A stretch of DNA of 64,000 nt from contig QHZD01000023.1 in NCBI GenBank assembly GCA_003225315.1, forward strand, positions 90,347-154,346, read 5' to 3'. Below are positions 1,346 to 19,288 of the stretch, one piece after another (positions within the stretch are counted from its first letter, which is position 1; each line of letters opens with the position of its first letter). The notes under the pieces are model-generated. The model made no database searches. It was not told the origin of the DNA and saw only the letters and a list, made by a program, of their open reading frames with translations. The stretch is from Acidobacteriota bacterium (GTDB lineage: Bacteria; Acidobacteriota; Terriglobia; Acidiferrales; UBA7541). Position numbers and translations under genes: made by a program.

Positions 1346-1394
1346 GTAGGTATTCTCCTCGCAAGTGAAACCGTAGCCCGATTACATTTTTGAT

Positions 1395-1410
1395 TGGTAA
1401 ACGTTTACCA
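1395..1410. promoter_or_regulatory. LacI-family operator-like perfect palindrome TGGTAAACGTTTACCA
   Basis: Perfect 16-bp palindrome with central CG and the AAACGTTT core typical of LacI/GalR operators, 50 nt upstream of the GH51 start. Confidence 0.75.
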
Positions 1411-1667: not shown

Positions 1668-3359
1668 TCACTGCGCCGGCTCAATAGCCTTCAATATCTG
1701 CCCGGCCTTGACGTTCTCGAATCTCTGGACAACCCCGGACGGCCACCGGATTTCGACCAACTTGGCAATGGAATCGCTGCCGAGGCCCGCTATCAACCGT
1801 TTGTCACTAGCTGAAAGATATCCGACGGCCGTATTAACGGTGAAATATTGCGCCAACCCAGACGCGGACACAACTCTTACGCTACAGCCAGTGCCGTCAC
1901 GGTTTGATTTTCTGCCGATGGTTTGTATCCCTAACCACTTTCTGTTGTTCCCACCGTCATTTCGCAGCACGTAAGCTCTTTGACCCACGTTGCTGACCAC
2001 GATGTCGACATCACCGTCGTTGTCGATATCGCCGAACGCCGCACCCCGGCCCGCCCATTCTTTTTGAAAAACGGCGCCGGGAACTACCCTCACGAAATGG
2101 CCAGACTCGTTCCGCAACAGCAGCGGTGGCTCGAGGTATTTCATGTTGGGTGAGGTTTGCTCGATAGTGTCCATCACATGCCCCTGCGCAACGAAGAGAT
2201 CTTTCCAGCCATCATTGTCGTAATCGAACAAATGCGTACTCCAACCGGAAAAAGCGAAAGTCCAGCCGCCCATGCCGGACGGGTTGGTCACATCCTGGAA
2301 GGTGCCTTCGCCGTTGTTGTGAAAGAGGTGATAGCGTTCATTAGAAAGGTCCGTGACGACAATGTCGGGGCGACCGTCATTGTCGTAATCGCTGAAGTCG
2401 GCCCCCATCCCTGCAAACACTTTGCCGTCCTCATTGTAGGCAACGCCTGCGGGAAGGCCGACTTCGGTGAACGTGCCATTTCCGTTGTTGTGGTACAAGA
2501 AGCTAGCCACCGAATCGTTGGCGACAAAGATGTCCGTGAAGCCGTCGTCGTCATAATCGGCAAAAGATACCCCTAGTCCTTTGCCTTCAGGGTTAGCAAT
2601 GCCAGCCTTCGCGGAAACGTCGGTAAATGTTCCGTCCCCATTATTGTGATAGAGGATGTTCGCGACGCCCTTGAAATTGTCGGGGTGACAGTAGGCCCGC
2701 AAGCCGGGTTTCTGTTCTCCACAATAGCGGTTGTTCCGGAAGCTCCAATCCACATAACGGGTCACGAAGAGGTCGAGGTTGCCGTCATTGTCGTAATCGA
2801 AAAACCCGGCGCTCGCACTCCATCCGCCAGCGACAACTCCGGCGCGTTTCGTTACGTCGGTGAAAGTGCCGTCCCCATTGTTATGATAGAGCGTGTTCCC
2901 GCCATAGCCTGTTACGTAGATGTCTTCAAAACCATCATTGTCGTAGTCGCCCACCGCCACACCCATCGGATAGTAGTTCTGCGCCATCCCAGTGAGGCCG
3001 GCTTTTTCCGTCACATCCGTGAATGTGCCATCGGGGTTTTGATGATAAAGCCGGTTCCAAAACCTTCGATCGGTCTTGTCCGGAAGCTTGCCGTCCGGCA
3101 TCGGATCGTCGATCTTCGCGCCGTTGGTGAAGAAGATGTCCAGCCGCCCATCGTTGTCATAGTCCAGGAGGGCCACGCCTCCTCCCATAGTTTCCACCAA
3201 GTACTTGCTGGAAGTTGCCGAGTTTTCGTGCTTGAAATCGATGTTCGTGGACCGGGTGATATCGGTGAAATGCACCTCCGGACCGGCTGTGGCCGCGGTC
3301 ACACAGAAGAAAAGCCCAAAGGACACGACCCAGCGGCGCGCATTTGAATATCTTCCCAT
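1668..3359 (-). CDS. CRTAC1-family protein (FG-GAP/VCBS repeats + C-terminal ASPIC/UnbV), paralog 1
   Basis: Repeated DYDNDGxxD blades followed by HHNxxGTFTDV, GRGAAFGDIDNDGDVD, and C-terminal GYLSASDKRLIAGLG...VEIRWPSG. The ORF track opens at TTG 3455; ATG 3359 (MGRYSNARRWVVSFGLFFCVTAATAG, signal-like) is preferred. Confidence 0.9.
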   Translation of the reverse strand: MGRYSNARRWVVSFGLFFCVTAATAGPEVHFTDITRSTNIDFKHENSATSSKYLVETMGGGVALLDYDNDGRLDIFFTNGAKIDDPMPDGKLPDKTDRRFWNRLYHQNPDGTFTDVTEKAGLTGMAQNYYPMGVAVGDYDNDGFEDIYVTGYGGNTLYHNNGDGTFTDVTKRAGVVAGGWSASAGFFDYDNDGNLDLFVTRYVDWSFRNNRYCGEQKPGLRAYCHPDNFKGVANILYHNNGDGTFTDVSAKAGIANPEGKGLGVSFADYDDDGFTDIFVANDSVASFLYHNNGNGTFTEVGLPAGVAYNEDGKVFAGMGADFSDYDNDGRPDIVVTDLSNERYHLFHNNGEGTFQDVTNPSGMGGWTFAFSGWSTHLFDYDNDGWKDLFVAQGHVMDTIEQTSPNMKYLEPPLLLRNESGHFVRVVPGAVFQKEWAGRGAAFGDIDNDGDVDIVVSNVGQRAYVLRNDGGNNRKWLGIQTIGRKSNRDGTGCSVRVVSASGLAQYFTVNTAVGYLSASDKRLIAGLGSDSIAKLVEIRWPSGVVQRFENVKAGQILKAIEPAQ

Positions 3360-3583
3360 GGCATGCCTGTCGAATCCTCTGGTTGCTAACAATTCCTTCG
3401 CTTTCCTGCAGGACAAAAGGTGATTGGCGTGCGAGCTCAGAAAGCTCTCCTTCAAGCCAGCAGGCCACGCGAGATCTACGCTTTCTACCTTCGTGGCGCG
3501 GCCCAGACCGACTCCTGATTCAGGCTTACCGCTTTCTTAAGGCTATTTTCAGTTCCGGAATACACATGAGCATTCATGGTCAT

Positions 3584-3649
3584 GCTGCCAACGGCCAGTA
3601 TGATAACGCAGCGTCGGGATGCCACCGAAGCTAATCCTCCAAGGTTCGG
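3584..3649 (-). promoter_or_regulatory. Duplicated promoter-like block, copy A
   Basis: About 50 of ~66 aligned positions match 16861-16926, and 23/24 match in the core CCGAAGC(T/A)AATCCTCCAAGGTTCG. The minus strand reads TTCGGT-N18-TATCAT. Confidence 0.6.
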
Positions 3650-3926
3650 AACCGCCTCATTAATAATTGCGAGGACGGATCGTCCGGCCGGAGCTTTGCG
3701 GATTGGTAGGAGTTGGCTTGTCGTCTTTCGAGGATTCGCCGGGATTAGTCGTGGCGGGCTGATAGATCGCGGTATTTGATGAGACTCCGGGGAAATCCCG
3801 TTCGCGAGGAGGAACCGCCGTTTGCCAGCCGGTCCCAGTGCTGGCCTGAGGTACTCACTCGGCTTTCTTTCCAGGCAGCTTTTTCCAGGCGTGCAAGATA
3901 CTTCTTTGATCGTTCGAAAAAACTTC

Positions 3927-3988
3927 TTGACATCAGTGCTTCAGGAGGAGTATCAGTGCACGCAATGCCCTCGGGAAAACGTTTACCG
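3927..3988 (+). promoter_or_regulatory. Sigma70-like promoter with downstream LacI-type operator
   Basis: TTGACA (3927-3932)-N18-TATCAG (3951-3956); GGGAAAACGTTTACCG at 3973-3988 matches the 1395-1410 palindrome at 13/16. Confidence 0.6.
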
Positions 3989-4229
3989 GGGGCTTCAAGT
4001 TAACGGGGTGAACCTGAATCCTGCGTGAAAACGATCGAAATGGAGCTGGAACAGAGCAAATGGTGCGTTTTGAGGACTGGGCCCTTGGTTTCAAACCTCG
4101 CACTTAGGAGCGAGTGTTCCAAAGCCCGGATCAATCTCGAGACTAACTTTCAAGGCTGTTCCAAACCGCCCATCAGATGCTTTCACGCCGGAATGAGGTT
4201 GGGCGCGTAAGTTTGGGGGAGGTGTAAAG

Positions 4230-7200
4230 ATGAAGCGGCCATCAACTCTCGTGGTCCTTCTGTTGTGTGTTTTTGTCGTGTCCAGCGGGCAGAGCCTGTG
4301 TGCCCAGTTGGCCGACCGGGCTGAAATTACCGGTATCGTCACCGACGCAAGCGGTGCGGCGGTTCCCGATGCCAAGGTGTCGATCATCAACCAGGATACC
4401 GGTGCGAAAATAGTGGTGGGCACGAACAGTGCCGGAAACTACAGCACGCCCCCACTCCTCCTAGGTACCTACACTATAGAGGTCGAAAAAGAAGGCTTCA
4501 AGCATGCCACCCACCCCGGCATCATGCTGAGCGGCGCGCAGAGTTTCCGCCAGGATGTGAAGCTCGAACTCGGTTCGGTGACTCAGTCCGTCGAGGTCGA
4601 GGGTGGCGCAGCGCTGATTAACACTGAAAACTCAACGGTGTCTCACACGATTGGCGAGACCTACTATCGCGATCTTCCAGGAGTGATGGGGGCTGACATT
4701 CGTCTTGCCGAGTCCCTGCTGCAACTACAGCCGGGCTTTGTGCCCATGCAGCCGAACGGCGACGCGATTTTCCGCGGCAGCCAATTTACGTCGCGGATCA
4801 ACGGCGGCCAAACCATGGCCACGGAGAATTGGTTTGACGGCGCGGCTTTCGGCTATGCGGAAGGTCACCAAGGGACGCAGGAAAGCGCGGTGCCCTACCC
4901 CTCCGTGCAGGAAATGACAGTCGTCGAGAATACCTTTTCCGCACAGTACGGACACACTAGCGGCGGTTTTATCACCTATGCCACGAAATCCGGCACCGAC
5001 AAGCTGCATGGCAACGTCTACAATTTCTTCACCAACGATAAGCTGGACGCGGGGAACTTCTTTTTTGCCGGCATACCGACAATCCCGAATAAGAAACTGC
5101 CTTTGACCCAAGATAATTGGGGTGCTGCCGTGGGCGGGCCCGTTCCGAAGATTACCAAATGGGGCAAAACGTTCTGGTTCGTCAACGTGGACGGCCTCGA
5201 CTACCACAGCACGGTTAACACCGGTTTTGTGAACACGCTTCCGACGCCTCTCCAGAAGCAGGGCAACTTCAGCGAGTTCCTGGGAGCCCAAGCAACGGAT
5301 AAGTGTCCGGCGGGGACAGCAAATGCGGGCCTGGTTTACCCCGTCAGCGATCTTCTTGGCAATCCTATTCTTAAGGGTCAAATATACAATCCGGATCCGA
5401 CAACTTTCCAGACGGTCACAAAAACCACTGTTGACCCTTGCACGGGGAGTCCTATCACGGTGGTAAACGGTACTGTGCGCACGCCTTACGCGGGCAACAT
5501 TATCCCAGCTAATGACCCGCTGCGGAGCTCATTGGCGGCATTTATGATTCCCAACATCCCGGGGCTTGATCGCAACACATTAGCCGTTAACGGTTTTGGC
5601 GGAAGTTCGGACGATAATAACAAGATTAACGTCAGAACCTGGCTTTTCCGAATCGATCACACGTTCAACAGTAAGTTCTCCGTCAGCAACACCTACTACC
5701 AGAACAACCGGCCGCGCACCGCTCACTGCGGCGGGCCGCAGGGCTGCACCACGGTGCACAATGGACAGACGGATTCCGCGGCAAACGATACCTACATCGG
5801 CCAGGGATTCTTCCAGCGCATTACCAACCATTTCGAACACGTGCAGATGAACTGGGTGATCAAGCCGAACCTCTTCAATCACACCACACTGGCCTACGAC
5901 CGCTGGCATATGCAAGGCAACCAATTATCCGGAGGTGTAGGCTGGAATCAGAAGCTCGGACTCGGCCTGCCCAACCAAGCCATATTCAACAACGCCGGCT
6001 TTCCGTCGATTAACTTCAGTGGACCTCAAGGCTACACCGCTTACGGGACACCTTGGGCAAGCGGAGGGAGCGACATCAACAATCGCTATCAATTTCTCGA
6101 CGACATCACCTGGATTACCGGCAAGCACACGATCAAGGCCGGGCTGGAATTCCGCTATATGACTTTCCCGCAAACCGGCTGGGCCGTCAACACAGGAGGT
6201 AGTTTTAATTTCAGCGCCAACGAAACTGCCAACTACGATTTCAGAGGCGCTAACAGAAGCGATGTGAGTGGGAACGAGTTCGCCTCTCTCATATTGGGGC
6301 AAGTGAACAGTGCCAATTTCTCTGCACCGTTCAGTTATATGCCGAAGATGAGATATGGCTCTCCCTGGATCAACGACGACTTCAAGTTGACGCCCAAGCT
6401 TACGCTGACCTTGGGTATCCGCTTCGACTGGCAATCAGGGCTGTCGGAGCAGCACGGAAAGTTTTCCACATTCGATCCTACCGCTGCCAACCCTGTCGGC
6501 CATCTGGGAGCAACGGTATTCGGCGGCAGCAAGCCTATCGGGAACAGCAGTTGGAGCGTTGGTCCGCGCTTCGGCTTTGCGTATCAGATCAAGAACAAAA
6601 CCGTGATCCGCGGCGGATACGGGATGTACTATGCCGGTGCGCAGGCCGACTCGTGGGATCCTTACCCAGTGGACGGCTACCAAACCAACCCGGTGGCGCC
6701 GAATATAACCAATGGGTTATTTCCGGCGTTCTACTTCCAAGGAACCGGTAGCTGTCCGAGCGTGTATGGTCCCACCAACCCGGCTCCTTGCGGCTGGCCG
6801 ACAGGGTCCATCGTGCTCCCGCCCCAACTCAAGGCCGACGTAGCGAATGGCGGAAACCCCGTGGGCGTGGATCCCAAGACATACACGATGCCCCGCTATC
6901 AGAATTGGTCGATTTCGTTCCAGCGCCAACTGGGCCAGAACATGGCGGTCGATATAGCCTACGTGGGCAATCATGGGACGCGACTGATCGATGGCCGCAG
7001 CTCCGCCGGAGTATATGACAACATGAACCCCGGGAGTGTGCTCGCTTTGGGTAGCGTTCTCACGAACGGGCAATTCAGTAACGGTATTCCCAACCCCGCC
7101 GCGATTGCGGGGGGATTCGCGAGTCCCCCGTACCCGGGTTTCACGGGAACAGTGGCCCAGTCTTTGCGAACGTGGCCGCAGTACCGGCAGATCAATTGGC

Positions 7201-7967
7201 GCTATTTTCCAAACGGCAATAGCCACTACAACGCTCTCCAGGCTTCCTTTGACCGGCGCATGAGCCAGGGCCTGCAGCTCCGTGTTGCTTACACCTATTC
7301 CAGGCTCATGAATAACGGCTCGGAAACTGGGTTGGGAGCCGGGGGACCTCCCGTGCAGAATCCCAGCGATATGAGCGACCTATACACCGTCAGTTCCGAC
7401 GACGTGCCGCACATTTTCACTTTCGGCTGGATCTACCAGTTGCCCTTCGGCAAGAGTAAGCTGGTGGGAAGGAACGCGTCGGGGGTTTTGGACAAGCTCA
7501 TTGGCGATTGGCAAATCTCGGGGACTCAGACTTACCAATCCGGGAGACCGCTGTCCATTACCATGGCGAACAACAGCCTCGGCGGATATCTCTTTAACTA
7601 TACCGAATATCCCAATAAGGTAAGCGGCACCAAGGGATTGACCGGAAACTTCCACGACCCGAACAAGGACACTTACTTGAACTCATCAGCATGGGCCGAC
7701 CCGGGACAATTTGCCTTCGGTAATGCTCCCCGCGAGGATGCGAGCGTCCGTGGTTTTAGGTACTTTAACGAGGACTTCTCCATCTTCAAGGACACACACT
7801 TCGGCGAGGGTCGGTACGTTAGGGTCCAAGCCGACGCTGGCAACGTTCTCAACCGCGTTTTCTTTTGCCCGGTGGGCACGGCTTTAGGTAACGCCAACTT
7901 CGGGAAAACAGGCAGCCAATGCAATGTGCCGAGGCGAGTCCAGCTCGGGTTGCAAATTTTCTTCTAG
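4230..7967 (+). CDS. Acidobacterial Oar-like TonB-dependent receptor (N-terminal carboxypeptidase-regulatory-like domain)
   Basis: 1245 aa; signal peptide; ITGIVTDASGAAVPDAKV; FSAQYGHTSGG...TKSGTDKLHG plug motif; GPRFGFAY; C-terminal RRVQLGLQIFF (terminal Phe); GGAGG RBS. Confidence 0.93.
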   Translation: MKRPSTLVVLLLCVFVVSSGQSLCAQLADRAEITGIVTDASGAAVPDAKVSIINQDTGAKIVVGTNSAGNYSTPPLLLGTYTIEVEKEGFKHATHPGIMLSGAQSFRQDVKLELGSVTQSVEVEGGAALINTENSTVSHTIGETYYRDLPGVMGADIRLAESLLQLQPGFVPMQPNGDAIFRGSQFTSRINGGQTMATENWFDGAAFGYAEGHQGTQESAVPYPSVQEMTVVENTFSAQYGHTSGGFITYATKSGTDKLHGNVYNFFTNDKLDAGNFFFAGIPTIPNKKLPLTQDNWGAAVGGPVPKITKWGKTFWFVNVDGLDYHSTVNTGFVNTLPTPLQKQGNFSEFLGAQATDKCPAGTANAGLVYPVSDLLGNPILKGQIYNPDPTTFQTVTKTTVDPCTGSPITVVNGTVRTPYAGNIIPANDPLRSSLAAFMIPNIPGLDRNTLAVNGFGGSSDDNNKINVRTWLFRIDHTFNSKFSVSNTYYQNNRPRTAHCGGPQGCTTVHNGQTDSAANDTYIGQGFFQRITNHFEHVQMNWVIKPNLFNHTTLAYDRWHMQGNQLSGGVGWNQKLGLGLPNQAIFNNAGFPSINFSGPQGYTAYGTPWASGGSDINNRYQFLDDITWITGKHTIKAGLEFRYMTFPQTGWAVNTGGSFNFSANETANYDFRGANRSDVSGNEFASLILGQVNSANFSAPFSYMPKMRYGSPWINDDFKLTPKLTLTLGIRFDWQSGLSEQHGKFSTFDPTAANPVGHLGATVFGGSKPIGNSSWSVGPRFGFAYQIKNKTVIRGGYGMYYAGAQADSWDPYPVDGYQTNPVAPNITNGLFPAFYFQGTGSCPSVYGPTNPAPCGWPTGSIVLPPQLKADVANGGNPVGVDPKTYTMPRYQNWSISFQRQLGQNMAVDIAYVGNHGTRLIDGRSSAGVYDNMNPGSVLALGSVLTNGQFSNGIPNPAAIAGGFASPPYPGFTGTVAQSLRTWPQYRQINWRYFPNGNSHYNALQASFDRRMSQGLQLRVAYTYSRLMNNGSETGLGAGGPPVQNPSDMSDLYTVSSDDVPHIFTFGWIYQLPFGKSKLVGRNASGVLDKLIGDWQISGTQTYQSGRPLSITMANNSLGGYLFNYTEYPNKVSGTKGLTGNFHDPNKDTYLNSSAWADPGQFAFGNAPREDASVRGFRYFNEDFSIFKDTHFGEGRYVRVQADAGNVLNRVFFCPVGTALGNANFGKTGSQCNVPRRVQLGLQIFF

Positions 7968-7988
7968 GCTCGCCACCTGACTTAACCG

Positions 7989-8025
7989 CCGGTGGGTGGT
8001 CCGCAAAGTGCGGGCCACCTACCGG
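7989..8025. terminator. Stem-loop between convergent genes
   Basis: CCGGTGGGTGGTCCGC (7989-8004) pairs with GCGGGCCACCTACCGG (8010-8025) using two G-U pairs, 22 nt after the receptor stop. Confidence 0.65.
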
Positions 8026-8121
8026 ATTGTCTTTCTCCCTTCTATCCCGGGAGCCATCAATTTTCATATTGTGAAAGGACAACTCTTTCGGTCACCGGGA
8101 AACACCGCACGGCGGAAGTTT

Positions 8122-9996
8122 CTATCGCTTGCCAAATTGGTCGCGCCGAATTATGCCCCGGCCCTCTTGAATCACGAGCAATTGGTTCACGCTAACGTTT
8201 TTGAACGATTCCATCAGTCCCAAAGGCCATTGGACTTCAACCAAGTCTGCCTGCTTGGCCCGGCCAAGCCCAAAGTGCAGGCGAAAGTCATTTTGGGACA
8301 TGTAACTGGAACCGCTCATTACCTCATTGATTTGAGAATGCCGGCCAGTAACCACGCGCACGCGAGCGCCAACGGCGCTCCGATTGGACTTGGTACCGAT
8401 GCACTTGACCTTTAGCCAGTTGTTCCGCGAGCTGCAATCATTGCGGAGAAGCGAAGGCGCCTCGTTCATGTTTAGAACTGCGACGTCCACGTCTCCGTCG
8501 TTGTCGAAGTCTCCGAAGGCAGTCCCTCGGCTGCTGTGCGGCTGAGTTACGCCCGGTCCGGCGCTCGATGTAACATCTGTAAAGCTCCCGTTGCCGAGAT
8601 TCTTGTAGACAGTCTTTCCCTGTTTGAACGTCACGTGTAGTCTCTTCGTGTCGACGGTAGGGAAGACGTGGCCGTTGGACATGAAGATATCCGGCCAGCC
8701 GTCGTTGTCGAAATCAAAAAGTCCTACTCCCCATCCCAGATACTTCGTATTGACGCCCAATCCCGCCTGAAAGACAGCGTCATAAAATGTGCCGTCGCCG
8801 TTGTTATGGTATAGATTGGCGGTCTGGTCGGAATAGTTGGTCTTGACGATGTCGAGCCAGCCGTCGCAGTCGTAGTCGCCAACTCCCACGCCCATGCCGC
8901 CCTGGGCCGTCCCGTTCTCGTTGAGGGCACAGCCCGCGTCGCCGCCTATCTCCTGGAACGTTCCATCTTGATTGTTGTGGTAGTAACGGCTGGGGACGGA
9001 ATCGCACGCTACGTAGATGTCCGGCCAGCCGTCGTTGTCGAAGTCCGCCGCACACACTCCGAGTCCGTAAGAGCCCGCGGGCACCCACTGATTGCTGACA
9101 GAAGTCGGCGCCGTTGAGCCGCGCGGGACCGACACACCTGAGCGCTCGGAAACGTCCTCAAATGTTCCGTCGCCGCGATTGCGGTACAGGATGTTCGTCC
9201 CCCCACTCATCCCTTGCGGTCCGCATCCGACGGACAGACCATAATACCTGCAGTACTGGTTCTCGCCGGGTTGAGGCGCCACTCGAGGATCAAAATTCAC
9301 ATAGTTTGCAACAAACAAGTCGAGGTGGCCGTCACGGTCGTAGTCCACAAAACAGCAACCCGTGTTCCATCGCGGCGCTGGACCGTTTTGAACAAGGCCA
9401 GCCTTTTGCGTGACATCAGTGAATGTCCCATCTCCATTGTTGTGGTAAAGGACGATTGCACCCCAGTAAGTCACGACCAGATCGTCGTATCCGTCGTTGT
9501 CATAATCTCCGACGCAGCACCCCTGACCCCATCCCGAGCGAATCAGTCCAGTTTTCTCCGTTACGTCTGTAAAGGAGCCATCGCGGTTATTGTGAAACAA
9601 GAAGTTGGCCGGCTGATGTTGCGCCGAGATGCCTTCAAATCTCGTCCCATTGACCATAAAGATGTCCAGCCAGCCATCGTTGTCGTAGTCAAAAAGAGCG
9701 ACGCCACATCCGGTTTCCTCTAGGAGCAAGCGCTTATGCGTAACGCCGCCAAAAACGTTAATTGCTCCGCCCAAACCCGCCCTTGCGCTAATATCTGTGA
9801 AAGAAAATCTCGCCGCATGGCCAGGACTGCTCTGGGGTTTCCGGCTTGCAGGTGATGCCGGCGATCTTTGAAGTGCCGTCGCGTCATGCAGCCCTGTCAG
9901 CAGTAGAGACGCGGGCACCACGGAGCCCAAACGGCCAAGTTGGCGGAGAAAGTCACGCCGTGATCCTGAGAGATTGCTGAGCAGACGAAGGCTCAT
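8122..9996 (-). CDS. CRTAC1-family protein, paralog 2 (Tat-like signal)
   Basis: SRRDFLRQLG; repeated D(Y/F)DNDGWxD blades; SRGTAFGDFDNDGDVD; SSYMSQNDFRLHFGLG...VEVQWP. Confidence 0.92.
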   Translation of the reverse strand: MSLRLLSNLSGSRRDFLRQLGRLGSVVPASLLLTGLHDATALQRSPASPASRKPQSSPGHAARFSFTDISARAGLGGAINVFGGVTHKRLLLEETGCGVALFDYDNDGWLDIFMVNGTRFEGISAQHQPANFLFHNNRDGSFTDVTEKTGLIRSGWGQGCCVGDYDNDGYDDLVVTYWGAIVLYHNNGDGTFTDVTQKAGLVQNGPAPRWNTGCCFVDYDRDGHLDLFVANYVNFDPRVAPQPGENQYCRYYGLSVGCGPQGMSGGTNILYRNRGDGTFEDVSERSGVSVPRGSTAPTSVSNQWVPAGSYGLGVCAADFDNDGWPDIYVACDSVPSRYYHNNQDGTFQEIGGDAGCALNENGTAQGGMGVGVGDYDCDGWLDIVKTNYSDQTANLYHNNGDGTFYDAVFQAGLGVNTKYLGWGVGLFDFDNDGWPDIFMSNGHVFPTVDTKRLHVTFKQGKTVYKNLGNGSFTDVTSSAGPGVTQPHSSRGTAFGDFDNDGDVDVAVLNMNEAPSLLRNDCSSRNNWLKVKCIGTKSNRSAVGARVRVVTGRHSQINEVMSGSSYMSQNDFRLHFGLGRAKQADLVEVQWPLGLMESFKNVSVNQLLVIQEGRGIIRRDQFGKR

Positions 9997-10000
9997 TTGA

Positions 10001-11599
10001 TCAGTCGGGTAACAGCAATCGGAGTTTCAAGTCCGTCTGCGAACTCCGCTCTGCCTCAAGCTTGCGTGACTCGGCAAACTGACTATCGGACTCGGCGGTT
10101 CTGCCAAGACGGCGAAACAACAAGCCGAGCTGATAGTGGGCTTGCACGGACCCGGGATCGAGCAGAACCGCGCGTTCAAGTTCTTCCTGGGCTTCGTCAT
10201 AGTGGTGCTGTCTCAAAAGTATGCTCCCCAGCTTGACACACGAAGGCGCATGCTCGCCGTGACTCCTGAGCAGGTCGCGAAACACCACAACAGCCCGATC
10301 ATCCTCGCCAAGCGCATCATAAGTAAGGCCCAGGTAGTAGGAAGCCGCAACCTGATCGGGCTGCGCTTGCAGGCTTTGTTTGAGCAAGGACTCGGCCTCG
10401 GGGTACTTGCCCTGCAGGTAGTTCACTGCCCCGATCGAATACTTCACGACGGCATCATGCGGATGCTTTTGTAGTAGCCGTGCGAATAGCGACGCAGCTT
10501 TGGAGAGGTTGCCTCTAGCGACGTTGGCGGAAGCCAAAACATAGACGTACGGATCCCGGTCGGGTTTTAGCGCGACTGCCTTTTCGAGCGCAGGCAAAGC
10601 ATCCTCCAGCAGATTTCGCTGTAGGCACACTTTTCCGAACTCGAAAAGGATTTCAGGATCTTCAGGATCCAGTTGTTTCGCCGTGACCAGGTACGCCAAA
10701 GCCTTCTCTGTATTCCCTTGCCGCTCCGCAATCTCGGCAAGGCCCTGGTCACAAACCGTGCACGCCGGGTTCAAGTCGAGCGCGCGTTGAAAGTTCTGCT
10801 CTGCTCTGTCCATAACTCCCAGGGACAAGTAGCTTTTTCCGAGCTGCAAGGCTAGCGTGGGGGAAGGATGCTCAGCGCTCTTTACTTCTTCGGCTTCGAA
10901 AACCTGTTTCGCCTCGAGGATCATTCCGAACATCGTCAAGACATTGCCAAATTCCAGGGATGTTTCGTCGGACGCGGCGGGCAACTGCTGCCAGTTACGA
11001 ACCAGGCCCCTAAGGGCTTCTTTTTCCCCCAGCGAACCATAGTCCGTTGCCAGCAACAGAATACCGTCATCGGACTCGCTTAGTTGAGCTATGATCGGGC
11101 CTGCCACTTCCAAGGAATGCCGATAGTTATGGAGAGATGCATCAACCTTGGCCAATTCAAACCGGGCGTTGAAGTTCCCGGGATCGAGCTTCACAGCCTC
11201 CCGGAAGCTTCTCCGCGCCAAATCCGGTTTACCCTGCAATAAGTAAGCGTTTCCCAGACTCGTTCGAGCGCCCACCAAATGAGGATTAAGCGCTAAGGCC
11301 TGGGTTAGAAAGCTCGTGCTCTCTTTATATTTGCCTTCCTCCAGCCGGATCGTTCCCAGCATCGCCAAAGCCAGCGCTCGAGTGGGCGGATTTCCCAGGG
11401 CCTGGCGCGCTTCAGTTTCCGCCTGGTCCATTTGTCCCTGGCTCAGCAGACGCGCCGCCATCTCAATATGGTTGAGCTGTGCCAACCCGACGATGGGGAA
11501 AATCAGAAGTGCAAGACACAGCTTGTACCAGCAGAGTGCGGGCCCAGCCCGGCAAGCGCAGTGCCGGAGGAACTCTGCGCGCTCACCAAAACTGCGCAT
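10001..11599 (-). CDS. Exported tetratricopeptide-repeat protein
   Basis: 532 aa of TPR-like helices (ALALNPHL..ARTSLGNAY, AVLLDPGSVQAHYQLG); stop lies 4 nt before the CRTAC1 paralog 2 start. Confidence 0.88.
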   Translation of the reverse strand: MRSFGERAEFLRHCACRAGPALCWYKLCLALLIFPIVGLAQLNHIEMAARLLSQGQMDQAETEARQALGNPPTRALALAMLGTIRLEEGKYKESTSFLTQALALNPHLVGARTSLGNAYLLQGKPDLARRSFREAVKLDPGNFNARFELAKVDASLHNYRHSLEVAGPIIAQLSESDDGILLLATDYGSLGEKEALRGLVRNWQQLPAASDETSLEFGNVLTMFGMILEAKQVFEAEEVKSAEHPSPTLALQLGKSYLSLGVMDRAEQNFQRALDLNPACTVCDQGLAEIAERQGNTEKALAYLVTAKQLDPEDPEILFEFGKVCLQRNLLEDALPALEKAVALKPDRDPYVYVLASANVARGNLSKAASLFARLLQKHPHDAVVKYSIGAVNYLQGKYPEAESLLKQSLQAQPDQVAASYYLGLTYDALGEDDRAVVVFRDLLRSHGEHAPSCVKLGSILLRQHHYDEAQEELERAVLLDPGSVQAHYQLGLLFRRLGRTAESDSQFAESRKLEAERSSQTDLKLRLLLPD

Positions 11600-11772
11600 A
11601 TTCCTTCATCATAGCAAGCTGCCACAACCGGGGCAACTTCTTAGAGTTTTTGTGAACGCGCGAACACGCGAAAACATTGTGAGCGTGCGTCCGCAGGTGT
11701 AAATTCTCTTGTCAACGAGTTGGACGGTATTCTGCTGAAGTCGTGCAGCTATCTGGGGAGCTCCACAGCTTA

Positions 11773-13512
11773 ATGTTCAATCAGAGAAGGCCGCACATCC
11801 GCTCGCGCCGTGGCTTCCTGAAGCGTCTGCTCGCTGCGCTCGTCGGGGGCTATCTGCCACGCTCCCCACGACCATACTGCCTCGCAGCGCCTCAGAGCGG
11901 TGGCAAGTTTCCGTTTGAGCTTGTCCCGCCTGCGGTGAGCGGGATTACGTGGGTACACCACAACGGGCGCTCCCCGGAGATGTACTTGCCGGAAACCGTG
12001 GGTGCGGGATGCGCATTCATCGATTATGACAACGACGGCTGGATGGACATTTACCTGGTCAACAGCGGCAAGTGTGATTTCTTCGATCCCGAGTCACCGC
12101 TCCGCAATGCGCTTTACCGGAACAATCGCGACGGAACATTCACTGACGTGACCGAAAAGGCCGGCGTCGGCGGCGGCGGGTATGGGATGGGTGTGGCGGC
12201 CGGCGATTACGACGGCGACGGCTTGCCCGACCTCCTTGTGACGCAGTACAACGGCGTCATTCTCTACCACAACAACGGCGACGGCACGTTTAGCGATGTG
12301 ACCAGGAAAGCTGGCCTGCCCACCAAGGGCTGGGCATCGAGTGCCGTCTGGTTTGACTACGACAACGACGGAAAACTTGACCTCTTTATTTGCCGGTTTG
12401 TGGATTTCGACAAGTCCAAGAATAAGTTTTGCGGCAACCCTCAGACCGGCCAACGCTACTACTGCATCCCACGCGTCTACGACCCTATGCCGAGCTGGCT
12501 GTTCCACAACAATGGCGACGGCACTTTTACAGACGTCAGCCACGAGTCTGGGATCTCGAAGTCCCCCGGCAAGGCCTGGGGCGTCGTCGCCTGCGACATC
12601 AACAACGATGGGCGGATGGATTTATTCGTCGCCAATGACACAATGGCGAATTTCCTGTTTGTCAATCGTGGCAATGGGAAGTTCGAAGAGATAGGCCTTC
12701 AGGCCAACGTGGGCTACAGCGCCGAGGGGCGGCCGCGCTCCGGGATGGGGGTGGACTCCGCCGACTACGACCAGGACGGCTGGATGGACCTGTTCGTCAC
12801 CAACGTAGACCAGGAGATGTATTCGCTTTACCGCAACAATCGCGATGAGACCTTCGACGATATGGCCATTCCTTATGGCATTGGCAAGGTCACGCGCCTG
12901 ATGAGCGGCTGGGGTGTGAAATTTCTCGATTACGACAACGACGGCACGCCCGACCTCTTGCTTGCCAACGGCCACCCTGACGACAAAATCCAGGAGCATT
13001 CCAGCGAAGTGAAATACCGCGAGCCCATGTTGCTCTTTCACGGCACGGGCCGAGGATTCGAGAATGTGACGGCTGGCAGCGGTCCCGTTTTCTCAAAGCC
13101 ATATGCCGCACGCGGCATGGCGATTGGCGATTTCAATAACGATGGCGCCCTCGATGTGTTGGTCGCAATCAACAATGGGTCGCCTCTGCTGCTCAAGAAT
13201 CAGGTTGGCCGGCTAAGCCATTGGTTGGGCGTAAGACTGGTCGCGAAGGGAACCAATCCCGACGCTGTGGGTGCGCTGATTACCTGGCAGGCCGGAGACT
13301 TGAAGCGATCACACTTCAGGACGGGAGCGGGAAGTTATCTGGCCTCTCACGACCCGCGCGTGGTGTTGGGCATCGGCAGGCGCACCCAGATCGACTGGGT
13401 CGAGGTGAAGTGGCCGCTGCCAAGCGGCCGCGCGGAACGCTTCACCAATCTCCCAGTCAATCAATACATTACACTCGTGGAAGGGCAGGGGAACCCGCTG
13501 CGAAAACCTTGA
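11773..13512 (+). CDS. CRTAC1-family protein, paralog 3 (Tat-like signal)
   Basis: ATG 11773; [11 protein letters not shown]; [22 protein letters not shown]; [16 protein letters not shown]; [16 protein letters not shown]...VEVKWP. Confidence 0.92.
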
Positions 13513-13700
13513 TTAGTTCTTTGCTGCAGAGAGGTTCCAGATCTTGTAGACGGCCCGGCGACCTTCGTAGGACACAATGAGGATGTTCGCCAAACCTTCC
13601 CAAAGTGGTTTTGCGCCGCGCTACCGTCCCGCCCGAGGAATCCCTTCATCGGAATGCATCTGTAAGAAAGTTGCGGCGTGATTGCGCGCCGCGGAGTCCT

Positions 13701-16700
13701 CTAGTCGCGTTGGCTCTTCGGTTGAGGCGGGTTGGCGGAGCGATTTGCGAGATTTCGCCGCATTTCTTCCAGGTCGCTTGTTTCCTTCTCCAGGCGCGTG
13801 AACGAATCCAGAGCCTTTTGGCTATCTTCCAAGTTCCCAAGCCGCCGATAAATGTGGGCCAGAACGTAATAATACGAAGACGCTCGAGGATTTAATGAAA
13901 TGGCCCGGTTCAGGGCATCGAGAGCATCAATCAGCCCTCCCTGTGCTTCCCTGGCTTTTGCCTGCTGGAACCAGGCGCCATCAGACTTGGGATCGAGTTC
14001 CGACGCGGCCCGGGCGTACGCTAGAGCCTTTTCGGAATCACCCTTCCGATTGTAATACGCGCTGAGGTTCACATGCGCCGACGCGAACTTTCCCTTCATG
14101 GCTTCGTTGATCGCAATGGCTTTCTCATAACTCGCGACAGCTCCAGCGTCATCGCCCAGAGCCTCCTGAGCAAAACCCAGACCATCCAAACTTTCCACGT
14201 ACGAAGGGTCGATATGGAGTGCGGCTTCAAACTCCTTTCGTGCAACGCTCCAATTGTCCTGGATGGAGAATAATTTGCCCAAGTTGAAATGCATCTCAGC
14301 GGATTGCGGGTTGTACCGGATCCCCTGCTCGAACTCCGCCCGGGCGGCGTCGTACCTGCCAATGATCATCAGGTTGCGGCCGAGAATCTTGTGCGCCTCA
14401 GCATTTTGGATGTCGAGTTGGAGCGATTTCGTGAGCGCCTGAATGGATTCGCCGATTTTTCGTTGGGCGAACTGGCTGTAGCCCAAGGCATACCAACCCC
14501 AAGAGGTTTTCGGGTGCTCGTTGACATAAGCAGCCAGGAGCGGCTCAACCTCCTGGAATCGCCCCGCTCGGATGTAGCCTTCAAATTCGGCGATACCTTG
14601 GGAGTCGTCCGCAAGTGCCTGGTCCTTCGAAAGCAACTGGACTTTTTCTCTGGCGAAGACGTCGCCGGGATTGAACCCCACTGCCTTTCGATACGCCGCG
14701 GCAGCACCCTGAGCATCGCCTTCCTTTTCAAGAGCCACTCCCAAGAAATGCTGGGCGTCTGAAGATTCGGGCTGGAGCTCAACCGCGTGCCGAAATTTGG
14801 CGGCGGCTTGATCCAAATCACCTTTGTCGAGCGCCACGCGGCCTTCGACGATATCCAAATCAGCGTTCTGCCTCCGGTCGTCGGAGGAAGCCAATTCGCG
14901 GCTCTTCTGCAACTCAGCAGTGGCCTCATCCTTTTGTCCTGCCCGCGCCAGAGCCAGCCCAAGCTGGTAATGAGCCTTGGTATTCTGTGGCTCAAGCCGC
15001 GCCGCTTCCCGAAGCTCTCCGATAGATTCCTCCACTTTCCCGTCGCTGAGAAGTGCCTTACCCAAAGCGAGGCGCGCACGCGCAAAGTTTGGTTCGGTCG
15101 CGACTACCTTACGCAACTGTTCGATTTCTTTAGCCGGCCCAGAGCTCGGGTCTGACCCGTACGCCACCGCGAGATTGAACTGCGCTTTCAACAGTCCCGG
15201 GGCGAGCGCTACGGCTCGCTGGAGTTCCCGCACGGCCTCTCGACTGTCCGTAGGAATGAGGACGGTGCCTAGATTCGCGTGCGCGTCCGCATAATCGGGT
15301 CGGATGCGCAGAGCCTCACGAAACTCGGCGATAGCTGCTTTGTCCTCGTTGCCCTGCGCTAGCACCAGCCCTATGTTATTGTGTGCATCCGCGAAATCCG
15401 GGCGCAGGCGCACGGCCTCACGAAACTCCGCCAGAACATCTTTGCTGTCTGCACCCTTGCGTCCAAGCAGCAGTCCGAGCATGTTGTGCGCTTCGGCGCG
15501 GTCCGGCTTCGCAGCCAACGCTCCGCGAATGCCTGCAATCGCCATATCCCAATCGGGGCTGGGACCAGACGAAGCGGAAATATTGATCCCGGCCTCGAAT
15601 TGCGCCATCGCTTTATCGAGATCGCCTGCGCGAAGATAAACAGTTCCGAGGTCGATGTATGTGGCGGAGAAGGACGGCAGGAGCGCAATCGCGCATTGTA
15701 GGTTTCGTCGTGCGTTCTCTATCTGGCCCGTTTCGCCCAGAGCGGTTCCGAGAAAGGCGTAGCCAGCGCCTGCCGACGGATCAAGTCGAACAGCCTCTTG
15801 CAGCTCGGAAATGCCTTTGGTTTTCAAACCGCTGTACCACAGCGCAACACCAAAATTGTAGTGTGAGTCAGAAAGGTCCGGCCGGAGCGCTACGGCGCGC
15901 TCCAAGTGGACCAGCGCAGAAGGCAAATCTCCTCTTTGGCCTAGTATGAAACCGAGCAGATTGTGCGCGCCGGCGTGACTGTCATCTTTACTTAGGGCTT
16001 CGCTGAGTAGTCGTTCGGCTTCTTTCAGGTCGCCTTGTGCGGCAGTCTGCTCTCCACGCTTGTAGAGGTCGTCTGCCGGACTCGCCAGAGGCTGGCGTGG
16101 CTTGCGCAGCGATGCAGCCTGCTTCTTCAAGGCCAAGCCGAGCGCATAATAACCTTCGTGGAATTCCGGATTGATGCGCACCGAGCTCTCAAACGCTTCG
16201 ATTGCGCCCTGAAGATCTGCGCTCTGTTGTAGCGTCTGGCCGAACACGTACTGAACATCGGCGCTGTCCGGTTCGCGCTCGGCGACCAGCCGTAGATGCA
16301 CAAGAGCGCCCTTGGCATCACCTTTTTCCCGAAGAGCGACGCCCAGATTCAGGTGCGCCACTAGATTGCCAGGCTCGAGCGCGAGCGCTCTTTGAAAGGC
16401 CCCAACCGCTTCGGACAATTCGCCATTCTTGGCTAACGCCGATCCCAGGTTCGTGTACGCCCGCGCGTATTTTGGGTCAAGCGAGACGGCCTTCCTGAAT
16501 TCAGCGACGGCGCCGGGCAAATCACCTCTCTGCAATGTAGCGACACCTAACCAGTTGTGTGCCTCGGCAGAGGTGGGGCCCAACTTCACCGCGTGCTGAA
16601 AGGCTTCGAGAGCATGCAAGAAATCGTTCCGGTCCCAATACGCCAGGCCAAGCGCGACGTAGAGCTTGGGGCTGTCAGGATGTTGTTTTATTTCATCTTG

Positions 16701-16817
16701 AATCTGGCTGACCGATGCCGGCTCATTTTTACTTAGCTGTGCCCGGCCGGGCAGAATCGAACCCACCAGGAGAACGACCAAGCCTAGAGTTCGATTAACT
16801 TTCGCGCGACTGTCCAT
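13701..16817 (-). CDS. Large exported TPR protein (~1040 aa)
   Basis: More than 20 TPR-like units (AVSLDPKYARAYTNLG, AVRLRPDFADAHNNIG). The ORF track opens at 16919; ATG 16817 (MDSRAKVNRTLGLVVLLVGSILPGRAQ) gives a signal peptide and lies downstream of promoter-like block B. Confidence 0.88.
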   Translation of the reverse strand: MDSRAKVNRTLGLVVLLVGSILPGRAQLSKNEPASVSQIQDEIKQHPDSPKLYVALGLAYWDRNDFLHALEAFQHAVKLGPTSAEAHNWLGVATLQRGDLPGAVAEFRKAVSLDPKYARAYTNLGSALAKNGELSEAVGAFQRALALEPGNLVAHLNLGVALREKGDAKGALVHLRLVAEREPDSADVQYVFGQTLQQSADLQGAIEAFESSVRINPEFHEGYYALGLALKKQAASLRKPRQPLASPADDLYKRGEQTAAQGDLKEAERLLSEALSKDDSHAGAHNLLGFILGQRGDLPSALVHLERAVALRPDLSDSHYNFGVALWYSGLKTKGISELQEAVRLDPSAGAGYAFLGTALGETGQIENARRNLQCAIALLPSFSATYIDLGTVYLRAGDLDKAMAQFEAGINISASSGPSPDWDMAIAGIRGALAAKPDRAEAHNMLGLLLGRKGADSKDVLAEFREAVRLRPDFADAHNNIGLVLAQGNEDKAAIAEFREALRIRPDYADAHANLGTVLIPTDSREAVRELQRAVALAPGLLKAQFNLAVAYGSDPSSGPAKEIEQLRKVVATEPNFARARLALGKALLSDGKVEESIGELREAARLEPQNTKAHYQLGLALARAGQKDEATAELQKSRELASSDDRRQNADLDIVEGRVALDKGDLDQAAAKFRHAVELQPESSDAQHFLGVALEKEGDAQGAAAAYRKAVGFNPGDVFAREKVQLLSKDQALADDSQGIAEFEGYIRAGRFQEVEPLLAAYVNEHPKTSWGWYALGYSQFAQRKIGESIQALTKSLQLDIQNAEAHKILGRNLMIIGRYDAARAEFEQGIRYNPQSAEMHFNLGKLFSIQDNWSVARKEFEAALHIDPSYVESLDGLGFAQEALGDDAGAVASYEKAIAINEAMKGKFASAHVNLSAYYNRKGDSEKALAYARAASELDPKSDGAWFQQAKAREAQGGLIDALDALNRAISLNPRASSYYYVLAHIYRRLGNLEDSQKALDSFTRLEKETSDLEEMRRNLANRSANPPQPKSQRD

Positions 16818-16860
16818 CGACCCGCGTCCAACAGTCAAAGCTACAAATGAAAGTTGCCAA

Positions 16861-16926
16861 GCTGCCCAAGGCCTCGTATGATAGCGCATGATCGGATAAC
16901 GCCGAAGCAAATCCTCCAAGGTTCGA
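16861..16926 (-). promoter_or_regulatory. Duplicated promoter-like block, copy B
   Basis: Homologous to 3584-3649; minus strand TTCGGC-N17-TATCAT; spaced inverted repeat CCGAAGC-N11-GGTTCGA. Confidence 0.6.
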
Positions 16927-16957
16927 ATCGAAAGTCACCCTCACCCGACGAATCTTC

Positions 16958-19045
16958 ATGAAATCTGCTAGAACTAAAAGGGTGAGCCCCGCGATGAGTT
17001 TGGCTCTGTGGTCATCGTTCAGTTTTGTTCTCTGCGGTTTGTATCTCATTTGGCCTGCGCTTCGAGCCCAGCATCAACCAGGCCCGGCTGTCGCAGCAGT
17101 AGAGATCGATGCGGATCGGGTCGAGGGTCAAATAAGCCCGGTGCTCTACGGCCAATTTGATGAATTCATGTTTGAAGGTGTGAAGCGCGGACTGACCGCT
17201 GAACTGATTCGCGATCGAAGTTTCGACGAAGCACCAAATGCGATAGGGCTGCCTCGCTATTGGGAACGCGAACCAGATGACCGCAATGATGACCCAGGGC
17301 TGCACTTCTACTGGGATGACGCAGTGTATTACCCAACGCGCCACGAATTCATGAGTGAGCGAACCGAACATTCGCTGCGGGTGAATCTTGCTGAAGACGA
17401 TGGCCAGCGCCGTGGAATCCGCCAGGGAGAAATCCCCATTCGGCAGGGACTCCCTTACCATGGCTATCTGTGGATCAAGACCGATGTATTCAAGGCTCGC
17501 ATCCATGTTGCTCTGGAAGCGGACAGGACCGGCGGGGAAACCTATTCGTCTGCGGAGATCAGTGATGTTTTCGGAGATTGGAAGAAATACGATTTCACCC
17601 TGACTCCTTCAAAGAGTGATGCGCTCGCAAAGATCGTCATCCTGTTAAGCGGAAAGGGCCGCCTCTGGCTCGACCAGGTTTCTATGTTACCGGGCGATGC
17701 CGTGGATGGCGTGCGCTCCGATGTCTTCCAGAAGATCAAAGCGTTGCGCCCTGCCTTTATTCGCTGGCCAGGCGGAAACGTTGCTCAGGATTATCACTGG
17801 ATGTGGGGCATTGGTCCGCGCGATCAGCGCCTCACATGGACAAACCTTTCCTGGGGCAACGAGCCGGAGCCCAGCGATTTTGGCACTGATGAATTCGTTC
17901 GTCTCTGCCGAAATGTCAGCGCTGAACCCTCGATTACCGTGAATGTCGAGGGCCGCGGCGCAACAGCTACTGAGGCAGCGGCGTGGGTCGAGTATGCGAA
18001 CGGCCCGGTATCTTCCCGTCAAGGCGCCATGCGCGCAGCGAACGGCAACTCCAATGCGTTCAAGGTGAAGTATTGGGAAGTTGGGAACGAAATCTGGGGA
18101 GACTGGGTTCACGGGCACAGTGATGCCAATACCTATGCACAGAACTTTGAACGCTACGCCGCAGCCATGTCCGGCGTCGACCCGTCCATCCAGCTAGTCG
18201 CTGTCGGTGACAACAACATGGACTGGAACCGCACGGTCTTGCAGCTTGCGGGTCCTCATATCGACTATCTTGCGATCCATCATTATTACGGTACCAGGGA
18301 TATGATGGGTGATCCGTCAAACCTCATGGCTCACCCATTGTCCTACGAACGCTTCTACAAGCAACTTGGTGATCTCATTCATGATCTCGTTCCCGGACGC
18401 ACAATCAAACTGGCCATCAACGAATGGAACACCTCGTCGCCCGTGCCGCGCCAACACTCGATGGAGTCTGCCTTATACGCCGCGCGGCTTATGAACGTAT
18501 TCGAGCGCAGCGATATTGTGGCCATGAGCGCCGTGTCCGACATGGTGAACGGGTGGTCGGGGGGAATGGTTCAGGCCAGCCACGACAACCTATTCGTCAC
18601 CCCAACGTACCTCGTCAACGAACTTTACAATCGCCACCTTGGCGCACAACGAATCACCGCGCGCGTAAGCAGCCCTACATTCGACGCAACCAGGGAGGGC
18701 AAAGGCGTGCCTTATTTGGATGTAGTGGCGAGCCGCACTGCTGACGGTAAGCACATCTTCATTAAAGCCGTTAATACAGATCCGCAGAGAGAGCTGCGCA
18801 CCTCAGTTCACATTGATGGGGCGCAGGTCCCTTCCAGCGCCGTCATTGAGACAATCAACGCGGATTCGATGACGTCGGCCAACAGCTTCGCGACTCCGAA
18901 CGCAGTTTCACTACAGCAGAAAACGATCAAAATCGGACCGCATTTTCTGGTCGATTTCCCCCAACACTCGGTTTCCGTCATAACCCTGAATATACTGAGT
19001 CCGACTGCTTTCCGACGTAGTACCGCAGTCGTTAATTCCGATTGA
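16958..19045 (+). CDS. Secreted GH51 alpha-L-arabinofuranosidase-like protein with CBM4/9-like insert
   Basis: LYGQFDEF; ELIRDRSF; IRWPGGNVAQDYHW; FGTDEF; YWEVGNEIWG (acid/base Glu); AINEWN (nucleophile Glu); C-terminal FPQHSVSVI. Confidence 0.9.
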   Translation: MKSARTKRVSPAMSLALWSSFSFVLCGLYLIWPALRAQHQPGPAVAAVEIDADRVEGQISPVLYGQFDEFMFEGVKRGLTAELIRDRSFDEAPNAIGLPRYWEREPDDRNDDPGLHFYWDDAVYYPTRHEFMSERTEHSLRVNLAEDDGQRRGIRQGEIPIRQGLPYHGYLWIKTDVFKARIHVALEADRTGGETYSSAEISDVFGDWKKYDFTLTPSKSDALAKIVILLSGKGRLWLDQVSMLPGDAVDGVRSDVFQKIKALRPAFIRWPGGNVAQDYHWMWGIGPRDQRLTWTNLSWGNEPEPSDFGTDEFVRLCRNVSAEPSITVNVEGRGATATEAAAWVEYANGPVSSRQGAMRAANGNSNAFKVKYWEVGNEIWGDWVHGHSDANTYAQNFERYAAAMSGVDPSIQLVAVGDNNMDWNRTVLQLAGPHIDYLAIHHYYGTRDMMGDPSNLMAHPLSYERFYKQLGDLIHDLVPGRTIKLAINEWNTSSPVPRQHSMESALYAARLMNVFERSDIVAMSAVSDMVNGWSGGMVQASHDNLFVTPTYLVNELYNRHLGAQRITARVSSPTFDATREGKGVPYLDVVASRTADGKHIFIKAVNTDPQRELRTSVHIDGAQVPSSAVIETINADSMTSANSFATPNAVSLQQKTIKIGPHFLVDFPQHSVSVITLNILSPTAFRRSTAVVNSD

Positions 19046-19069
19046 GAAAAACGGCATACTACGAGAGTC

Positions 19070-19091
19070 GTTAGGTACAAGTTAGGTACAA
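19070..19091 (+). repeat. Tandem direct repeat GTTAGGTACAA x2 (integrase arm-site-like)
   Basis: Two perfect adjacent 11-bp copies (19070-19080, 19081-19091), about 70 nt upstream of a tRNA 3' fragment. Confidence 0.75.
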
Positions 19092-19161
19092 CTAAGAGGG
19101 GGAAAATAACTGCTCGTGTCCCGTAAGCGACGCCAGACAAAGCGTTTATGGGATTCAGTTG

Positions 19162-19211
19162 TCTGGTTCGGGACCAGGAGGTCGATGGTTCAAATCCATT
19201 CGCCCCGACCA
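19162..19211 (+). pseudogene. 3' fragment of tRNA-Pro(CGG), att-like remnant
   Basis: Anticodon stem TCTGG/CCAGG with loop TTCGGGA; variable AGGTC; T-arm GATGG-TTCAAAT-CCATT; acceptor 3' strand CGCCCCG-A-CCA. No complementary 5' acceptor strand (CGGGGCG) or D-arm upstream. Confidence 0.88.
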
Positions 19212-19233
19212 CTTCTCTCCGTTGAGGTTTCTT

Positions 19234-19288
19234 CCGAGCGGAATCTCCCACCACCGCGTTCGTTATTTCGCCCTTCGATTTCGCTCGG
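19234..19288. repeat. Inverted repeat downstream of the tRNA fragment
   Basis: CCGAGCGGAATC (19234-19245) vs GATTTCGCTCGG (19277-19288): 11/12 complementary, 12/12 with one G-U pair. Confidence 0.5.

Follow-up and report, generated by a model that had tools for sequence, protein, structure and literature searches.

This locus raises the question of what a partial tRNA gene, preceded by a short tandem repeat, marks at the boundary between two carbohydrate loci. The window analyzed here is a stretch of 64,000 nucleotides from genome G000 of an uncultured member of the Acidobacteriota (G000:C20:90347-154346). At window positions 19163-19211 lies a piece of tRNA-Pro(CGG). It starts in the anticodon stem, takes in the T-arm and the 3′ acceptor strand, and ends with CCA. 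Its anticodon arm (TCTGG-TTCGGGA-CCAGG) is followed by the variable loop, the T-arm (GATGG-TTCAAAT-CCATT), and a 3′ end made up of the acceptor strand CGCCCCG, the discriminator A, and CCA; the 5′ acceptor strand and the D-arm are absent from the piece. A functional tRNA gene with a complete cloverleaf is ruled out, as ARAGORN made no tRNA call in the window and the match to Rfam RF00005 was partial (21 bits, below the gathering score of 29, and covering model positions 9-63 only).

About 70 nt upstream of the tRNA piece, GTTAGGTACAA stands twice in tandem on the forward strand (19070-19091). With up to one mismatch allowed, this sequence occurs at only two places in the 64 kb, both of them the tandem units, against 0.21 expected, and chance does not explain the repeat. 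It is followed on the same strand by the motif CTAAGAGGGGGAA (19092-19104), which alignments place after the tandem repeats in most subfamilies, and by the arm block CCCGTAAGCG-ACGCCAGACAAAG-CGTTTATGGG (19120-19152), in which a GACGCCA core (19129-19135) is flanked by an imperfect inverted repeat. By their Pfam matches, the genes on one side of the fragment form an arabinose/arabinan block and those on the other side a DeoR/AgaR-type amino-sugar block. A first-pass annotation made from the letters alone had described this arrangement (a tRNA-Pro reduced to the anticodon arm through CCA, the upstream tandem repeat, and arabinose and AgaR blocks on either side), and the sequence and the Pfam matches bear it out.

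The fragment has an intact counterpart on the same contig. A whole-genome search matched it over 54 nt, at 100% identity (E = 1.7e-21), to G000:C20:74846-74899, the 3′ end of a tRNA-Pro(CGG) gene that ARAGORN, run on the genome, places at C20:74817-74894, 15.5 kb before the start of the window. The first-pass annotation had anticipated such a gene, upstream and outside the window, as the partner of an attachment-site scar. The downstream copy of the repeat (C20:109509-109562; window 19163-19216, forward strand) lies in direct orientation, 34.6 kb from the intact gene, and consists of tRNA positions 30-78 (19163-19211) plus CTTCT. Identity thus begins at the second base of the anticodon stem and runs to the tRNA 3′ end, with the anticodon stem-loop forming the 5′ edge; across the genus, fragments start mostly at tRNA positions 27-34.

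In tDNA islands, a regenerated gene and a displaced 3′ fragment mark the two ends, and a class of attachment sites centered on the anticodon is known (Williams 2002; Hudson et al. 2015, PMC4383910). C20 carries the Islander signature, that is, an intact tDNA and its cognate 3′ fragment on one replicon in direct orientation, and the start of the repeat at tRNA position 30 is that of an anticodon-centered (class A) site. The fragment is very probably the attR scar of a tyrosine-integrase island, here called island A, that has decayed to a CIME-like state within a tandem array.

Island A spans G000:C20:74895-109508 (34.6 kb) and begins 15.5 kb to the left of the window, which holds its right 19.2 kb (1-19162). 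Pfam matches to all large ORFs identify two GH127 β-L-arabinofuranosidases, two GH51-like α-L-arabinofuranosidases, and the L-arabinose isomerase AraA, together with a LacI regulator, two CarboxypepD_reg/OMP_b-brl_4 TonB-dependent receptors, four FG-GAP/ASPIC proteins, and four TPR proteins. No integrase, relaxase, or other mobility domain was found among its ORFs, using Pfam on the large ORFs and a six-frame PF00589 search. The latter returned 10 integrase-like genes in G000 and none on C20, which extends to the whole contig the earlier remark that the window lacks an integrase. The GC content of island A is 55.6%, compared with a genome value of 57.1% (SD 0.9, 30-kb windows), and its tetranucleotide distance falls in the 98th percentile.

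To the right of the fragment lies a second sugar locus, segment B (about 19217-48290; ~29 kb), which is likewise atypical (GC 54.4%, tetranucleotide distance in the 97th percentile); the flanks outside A and B have typical composition. Its Pfam matches comprise a PQQ dehydrogenase, DUF4832, an esterase, CBM9, a BNR protein, SIS, DUF5107-TPR, a DeoR regulator, a TonB-dependent OMP, a LacD-like aldolase, two PfkB kinases, an MFS transporter, a NagB-like protein, a GFO oxidoreductase, and a GH27-like protein, with no mobility genes among them. Segment B has no att repeat at its right edge, where local alignment scores for a leftover tRNA-Pro fragment were those of background. At its left edge, 23 nt past the fragment, is a 12-bp inverted repeat (CCGAGCGGAATC...GATTTCGCTCGG, window 19234-19288), which is kept with one extra T in G126, an independent species-level MAG with a backbone identity of 94-95%.

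Beyond segment B, a gene for a double-domain aldehyde dehydrogenase (ALDH; 48343-50928, reverse strand) is taken as the first native gene of the right flank, and the homology of G065 and G106 to G000 begins exactly here. In G013, a distant relative whose genome is 56% complete, an intact tRNA-Pro(CGG) (contig C22) and a 3′ fragment (C23) each lie 78 nt from the stop codon of an ALDH homolog; in G000, 63.7 kb separate the ALDH gene from the tRNA. The protein encoded by the left-flank gene is 92% identical between the two genomes. Because tRNA and ALDH are 78 nt apart in G013 versus 63.7 kb in G000, we read the fragment as the point where two successive insertions meet. G126 also carries the insertion. 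The idea that tRNA-Pro(CGG) has ALDH as its right neighbor throughout the genus was rejected: the arrangement was seen in G013 only, and in most other relatives tRNA and ALDH are unlinked, on different contigs or far apart. From G013 and composition we infer that segment B is an inserted island whose own right-hand repeat is gone.

The tandem repeats, the GACGCCA block, and the tRNA fragment recur together as a module. The 151 nt from 19072 to just beyond the fragment have a counterpart in G012, 87% identical, that lies behind unrelated cargo. A search for GACRCCA-N25-40-TTCGGGACCAGGAGGT gave 80 matches in 54 of 260 Candidatus Acidoferrum genomes and none for the reversed control pattern. Among the genomes of 185,579 species, the module was found at 94 loci, almost all of them labeled Candidatus Acidoferrum, Acidoferrales, or Acidobacteria gp2. 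In 81% of 109 distinct copies, a unit is repeated in tandem ~57 nt before GACRCCA with a period of 10-11 and a match at 8 or more of 9 positions; the figure for controls is 3.4%. The repeat unit itself varies by arm subfamily (e.g., TAGGTACAA, CTTGTCCAA, TTAGGTTCAA, GTTGGCCAA, TTCGGTCCAA, and GGTTGCGAA), and its position and tandem layout are constant. A fixed position with a subfamily-specific sequence is what would be expected of arm-type sites coevolving with their integrase, and across the 109 related copies the repeats behave like the arm-type sites that the first-pass annotation took them for. Those of the window, conserved in G012, G126, G106, and many other genomes, are accordingly proposed as arm-type integrase sites on the right (P) arm of the island. 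GACGCCA and TAAG...CTTA are near-invariant in alignments of the module.

G000 itself contains a 238-nt repeat with one mismatch between copies (C37:133-370 and C16:1-238, the latter at the start of its contig). It belongs to another arm subfamily, with GGTTGCGAA/GGTTGTGAA repeats and a GACGCCAGGACGATGG block, and its tRNA-Pro(CGG) fragment stops after the T-loop. Acidoferrum-type modules also occur in MAGs labeled Planctomycetota, Limnocylindrales, Elarobacter, or Eremiobacteraceae (loci L159, L180, L195, L196, and L222); the odd labels, including that of G126, which is close to G000 and labeled Elarobacter, likely reflect mis-binning or mislabeling.

Candidate integrases come from relatives. 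In G005, a 505-amino-acid tyrosine integrase is encoded on the opposite strand immediately after an intact tRNA-Pro(CGG), the neighborhood in which the first-pass annotation suggested looking for one; in G000 the place next to the intact gene holds none. A complete element lies on one contig in G107 and consists of a fragment, an integrase, cargo, AGGTACAG/GTTAAGTACAAG repeats, a GACACCA block, and a second fragment. Its integrase (a 473-amino-acid ORF with PF00589 and a SAM-like N-terminal domain, on the opposite strand 20 nt after the fragment) is 65% identical to that of G005, so a cognate tyrosine-integrase family, as invoked in the first-pass annotation, is present in relatives. An N-terminal extension precedes the SAM-like core-binding domain of the candidate integrase; Pfam detected no arm-binding domain in it. 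In five of the 86 modules with enough downstream sequence, an integrase of this family follows at 20-160 nt; all five are on the opposite strand, and two are truncated remnants. An integrase ahead of the arm, at the right end of the element, was seen in 0 of the 91 modules checked upstream. The G107 layout and these positions indicate that the full element reads attL, int, cargo, arm repeats, GACGCCA block, attR, and int appears to have been lost from most members of the arrays. Elsewhere, short segments without an integrase contain toxin-antitoxin pairs or small numbers of ORFs; toxin-antitoxin genes and the like commonly survive in decayed islands. No homolog of the cognate integrase above 31% identity was found in G000, and there is no remnant on C20, so that integrase and island are linked here by homology of the att arms only.

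Integrase genes also adjoin tRNAs elsewhere in G000. Tyrosine integrases at C29:322102-323362, C3:48756-50064, C19:18689-20112, and C21:64337-64953 lie next to tRNA-Leu(TAA), tRNA-Ile(GAT), tRNA-Ser(GCT), and tRNA-Thr(CGT), respectively, which makes other tDNA islands likely in this genome. A degenerate 3′ fragment of tRNA-Pro(TGG) (C14:41659-41697), 7.5 kb downstream of the intact gene (C14:34039-34115), is probably the mark of another small island. One tRNA in the ARAGORN output, at C34:105890-105965, has a two-base anticodon, "(cc)", and no assigned identity.

We propose the following course of events. An element would have entered tRNA-Pro(CGG) by tyrosine-integrase recombination centered on the anticodon loop, and the displaced 3′ part of the gene would have stayed behind at attR. 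Its attP would have borne the tRNA sequence from the anticodon stem onward, 3′ end included, such that the gene was regenerated at attL. The two GTTAGGTACAA units and the GACGCCA block would represent the element-side (P) arm, with the repeats as putative arm-type sites; by analogy, they may be bound by the N-terminal domain of the integrase. An integrase of the G107/G005 type probably made the insertion, judging from att-arm homology. Island A would then have lost this gene, which in intact relatives sits right behind the tRNA on the opposite strand, and become a CIME-like relic in tandem with segment B, a second inserted sugar locus whose right-hand repeat is gone. The model predicts that excision would join tRNA-Pro...CTTCT to CTCCGTTGAGG in the empty site and that the circular junction of island A would read ...CAGTTGT-CTGG...CTTCT-TTTAGAACC.

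At the left end of island A, directly after the intact tRNA, is a 21-nt motif, TTTAGAACCAGCAATTTACAG, that is also found behind tRNA-Pro or its fragments in other genomes. Next comes a 465-nt stretch that is missing in G126. A tblastn search with the cognate integrase (E = 10) found no match on C20, this spacer included, and an integrase pseudogene in the spacer or elsewhere on the contig was rejected. Between tRNA-Pro(CGG) and the first island gene, C20:75139-75243 is an 88.6% identical copy of the last 41 nt of tRNA-Gly(GCC) and 62 nt of its downstream flank (source, C9:307914-308016), with an ATTAAGTACAA site ~68 nt before it. The pair looks like a second att scar, left by an element that targeted another tRNA. 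Two same-orientation GTTAGGTACAA-like sites in the spacer, each with two mismatches, were considered as the left arm of island A and rejected, since one of them lies ~68 nt upstream of the tRNA-Gly fragment and probably belongs to that scar. Inverted arm-type sites like the TTG(A/G)GTCC triplet at the attL of G107, itself our own reading of the sequence, are not recognizable at the left end of island A. The integration module is deleted from this end, and because the end holds unrelated debris and no clear arm sites, attL and attR as they now stand may be the ends of two distinct array members fused by deletion.

Relatives show the same junctions and how the scar is changing. All genomes compared are MAGs, with G000 at 97.6% completeness in 57 contigs. 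G126 shares three junctions with G000: fragment to 21-nt left motif to GH127; GH51 to arm to fragment to PQQ dehydrogenase; and segment B to ALDH. Its fragment differs at 4 of 54 positions, two of them in the anticodon stem-loop, and has an altered acceptor end, and its tandem repeat is changed at 3 of 22 positions. Such divergence suggests that the scar in the G126 lineage is evolving like neutral DNA, at a rate that equals or exceeds the local neutral one. For the G000 repeat, the expected number of changes is about one; its perfection thus fits chance preservation and is no evidence of recent integration.

The cargo has a wider history. The GH51-like gene was found in 5 of 150 other genomes sampled from the genus, and G065 matches the right half of island A collinearly. 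Between G000 and G065 or G106 the arabinan cluster is 92-96% identical and the ALDH-deoC backbone ~85%, a contrast based on few loci. Both relatives have arm remnants, consisting of one or two degenerate repeat units and CTAAG(AGGGGGA), without the GACGCCA block and without the fragment. The remnants and the difference in identity indicate that the arabinan cluster traveled with the arm, and it was probably exchanged between species, as these sequence comparisons suggest; the lack of an att core in G065 and G106 leaves room for other routes of movement. At window 16850-16947, between the TPR and GH51-like genes, G065, G106, and G126 have an extra ~2.3 kb that is missing in G000 and that encodes a GH39 glycosidase in G065.

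The strongest competing explanation makes the module a working part rather than a scar. Here, a tRNA-Pro(CGG) integrase encoded in trans would excise, reshuffle, and reinsert at the tRNA live but nonautonomous cassettes that lack an integrase, whole glycan loci included, and the ~150-nt module would act like an attC site. It accommodates the rarity of integrases next to modules both downstream and upstream, segments as small as 0.9-2 kb that hold one toxin-antitoxin pair or just a few ORFs, arrays in which up to four modules follow one another (G005, G008, and G149), the near-identical arms beside unrelated cargo in G000 and G012, and the two intact att cores of island A. Against it, the orthologous module is decaying in G126, which speaks against functional selection; a cognate integrase is missing from G000, and recognizable arm sites are missing from the left end; and accretion usually yields tandem arrays of decayed elements (PMC5704250). 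We consider live cassettes unlikely. The first-pass annotation had offered a related alternative, a small nonautonomous tRNA-derived element that shuffles glycan-utilization modules: the recurrence of a ~150-nt module beside unrelated cargo without an integrase agrees with it, and decayed CIME-like islands in tandem arrays are the simpler account. The findings that it had named as counting against an att scar were not made: the module is multicopy, a cognate intact tRNA and integrase exist, and the flanking genes were not found to be syntenic in relatives without the fragment.

A second possibility is that arm and fragment are transcribed together as a tRNA-like or otherwise structured RNA, in which a hairpin or pseudoknot replaces the missing 5′ half. 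A 10-bp imperfect hairpin (19120-19129 with 19143-19152) does precede an intact anticodon arm, T-arm, and CCA, and the GACGCCA block is kept in more than 100 copies. Nevertheless, CGCCCCG has no 5′ acceptor partner, neither ARAGORN nor Rfam accepts the sequence as a tRNA, and the G126 substitutions break the anticodon stem and change the acceptor end. Over the 109 copies, in-register hairpin pairing averages 7.17 pairs, barely above the 6.96 ± 0.06 obtained with shuffled partners (shuffled maximum, 7.23), and conservation lies in sequence blocks rather than in covarying pairs. Given this weak covariation, the GACGCCA block is treated as a conserved DNA site rather than an RNA structure. Att-site geometry fully accounts for the position and orientation of the fragment, and a structured RNA here is highly improbable. 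Equally hard to credit is an assembly or binning artifact, in which a chimeric contig was joined through tRNA-Pro-related repeats: G000 is a MAG in many contigs, related modules lie at contig ends (C16 and C37), and several module-bearing MAGs have implausible taxon labels, but both junctions of island A and the B-ALDH junction recur in G126, an independent MAG of another species, G065 is collinear with the right half of the island, and a 54-nt repeat alone would not mislead an assembler into a 164-kb contig.

An attR scar of a decayed island therefore remains the best explanation. On this reading, it is the right-hand scar of an ordinary kind of mobile relic, and the family to which it belongs was previously undescribed and is very abundant in uncultured soil Acidobacteriota. 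What is new is a candidate integrase apparently specific for tRNA-Pro(CGG) and a defined, putative ~150-nt att module in Candidatus Acidoferrum, together with the observation that the mostly integrase-less members of the family include whole glycan-utilization loci. In this abundant lineage of uncultured soil bacteria, whole polysaccharide-utilization loci appear as cargo where a tRNA gene serves as an integration hot spot. The att module, with its arm repeats, GACGCCA block, and tRNA-Pro fragment, could be used to map islands in such MAGs, and tools that demand an internal integrase would miss islands like island A. There is a small chance that the tRNA-Pro(CGG) locus is a gene-capture platform, at which a trans-acting integrase stacks, excises, and exchanges integrase-less segments by way of the modular site. 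If so, it would amount to an integron-like system built on a tRNA att site, with contents from toxin-antitoxin cassettes up to 35-kb glycan loci.

Among known systems, integrons resemble the module arrays in having short integrase-less segments that each end in a conserved ~150-nt module and in commonly carrying toxin-antitoxin cassettes. Unlike integrons, the arrays lack IntI, attI, and Pc, their sites are tRNA derived with arm-type repeats instead of attC hairpins, and their segments reach 35 kb, hold many genes, and lie in both orientations; membership was rejected on the grounds that no integrase is nearby, the sites derive from a tRNA, and hairpin covariation is weak. With lambda-type att sites (P1/P2 and P′1-3) the module shares tandem direct repeats ~70 nt from the core, a repeat sequence that shifts with subfamily, and an N-terminal extension of the integrase. 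It differs in its additional conserved GACGCCA block and in an integrase without a Pfam arm-binding domain, and its sites are known here from sequence.

Islander-type tDNA islands are closer. Like them, island A combines an intact tDNA with a direct 3′ fragment, a start in the anticodon stem, a tandem arrangement at one tDNA, and atypical composition. Island A differs in that its interval contains no integrase, on which ground the Islander filter would reject it, and in that its cargo is a large glycan-utilization locus rather than phage or conjugation genes. CIMEs and site-specific accretion are known from ICESt1 and CIME19258 of Streptococcus thermophilus (Pavlovic 2004; Bellanger 2011; reviewed in PMC5704250). 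As in a CIME, attL and attR are retained in island A (the 54-nt cores are perfect and the right-arm tandem repeats match the family consensus, with left-arm sites unrecognizable), and the integration and transfer genes are lost. Island A departs from them in showing no remnants of a conjugation module that would point to ICE or IME descent, in left-arm sites that look eroded, and in its host, an uncultured member of the Acidobacteriota. Like CIMEs, it occupies the 3′ end of a tRNA gene as one of several elements in tandem and has integrase-bearing kin in the same genus, and its mechanism is a textbook one, with no departure from known tyrosine-integrase biology.
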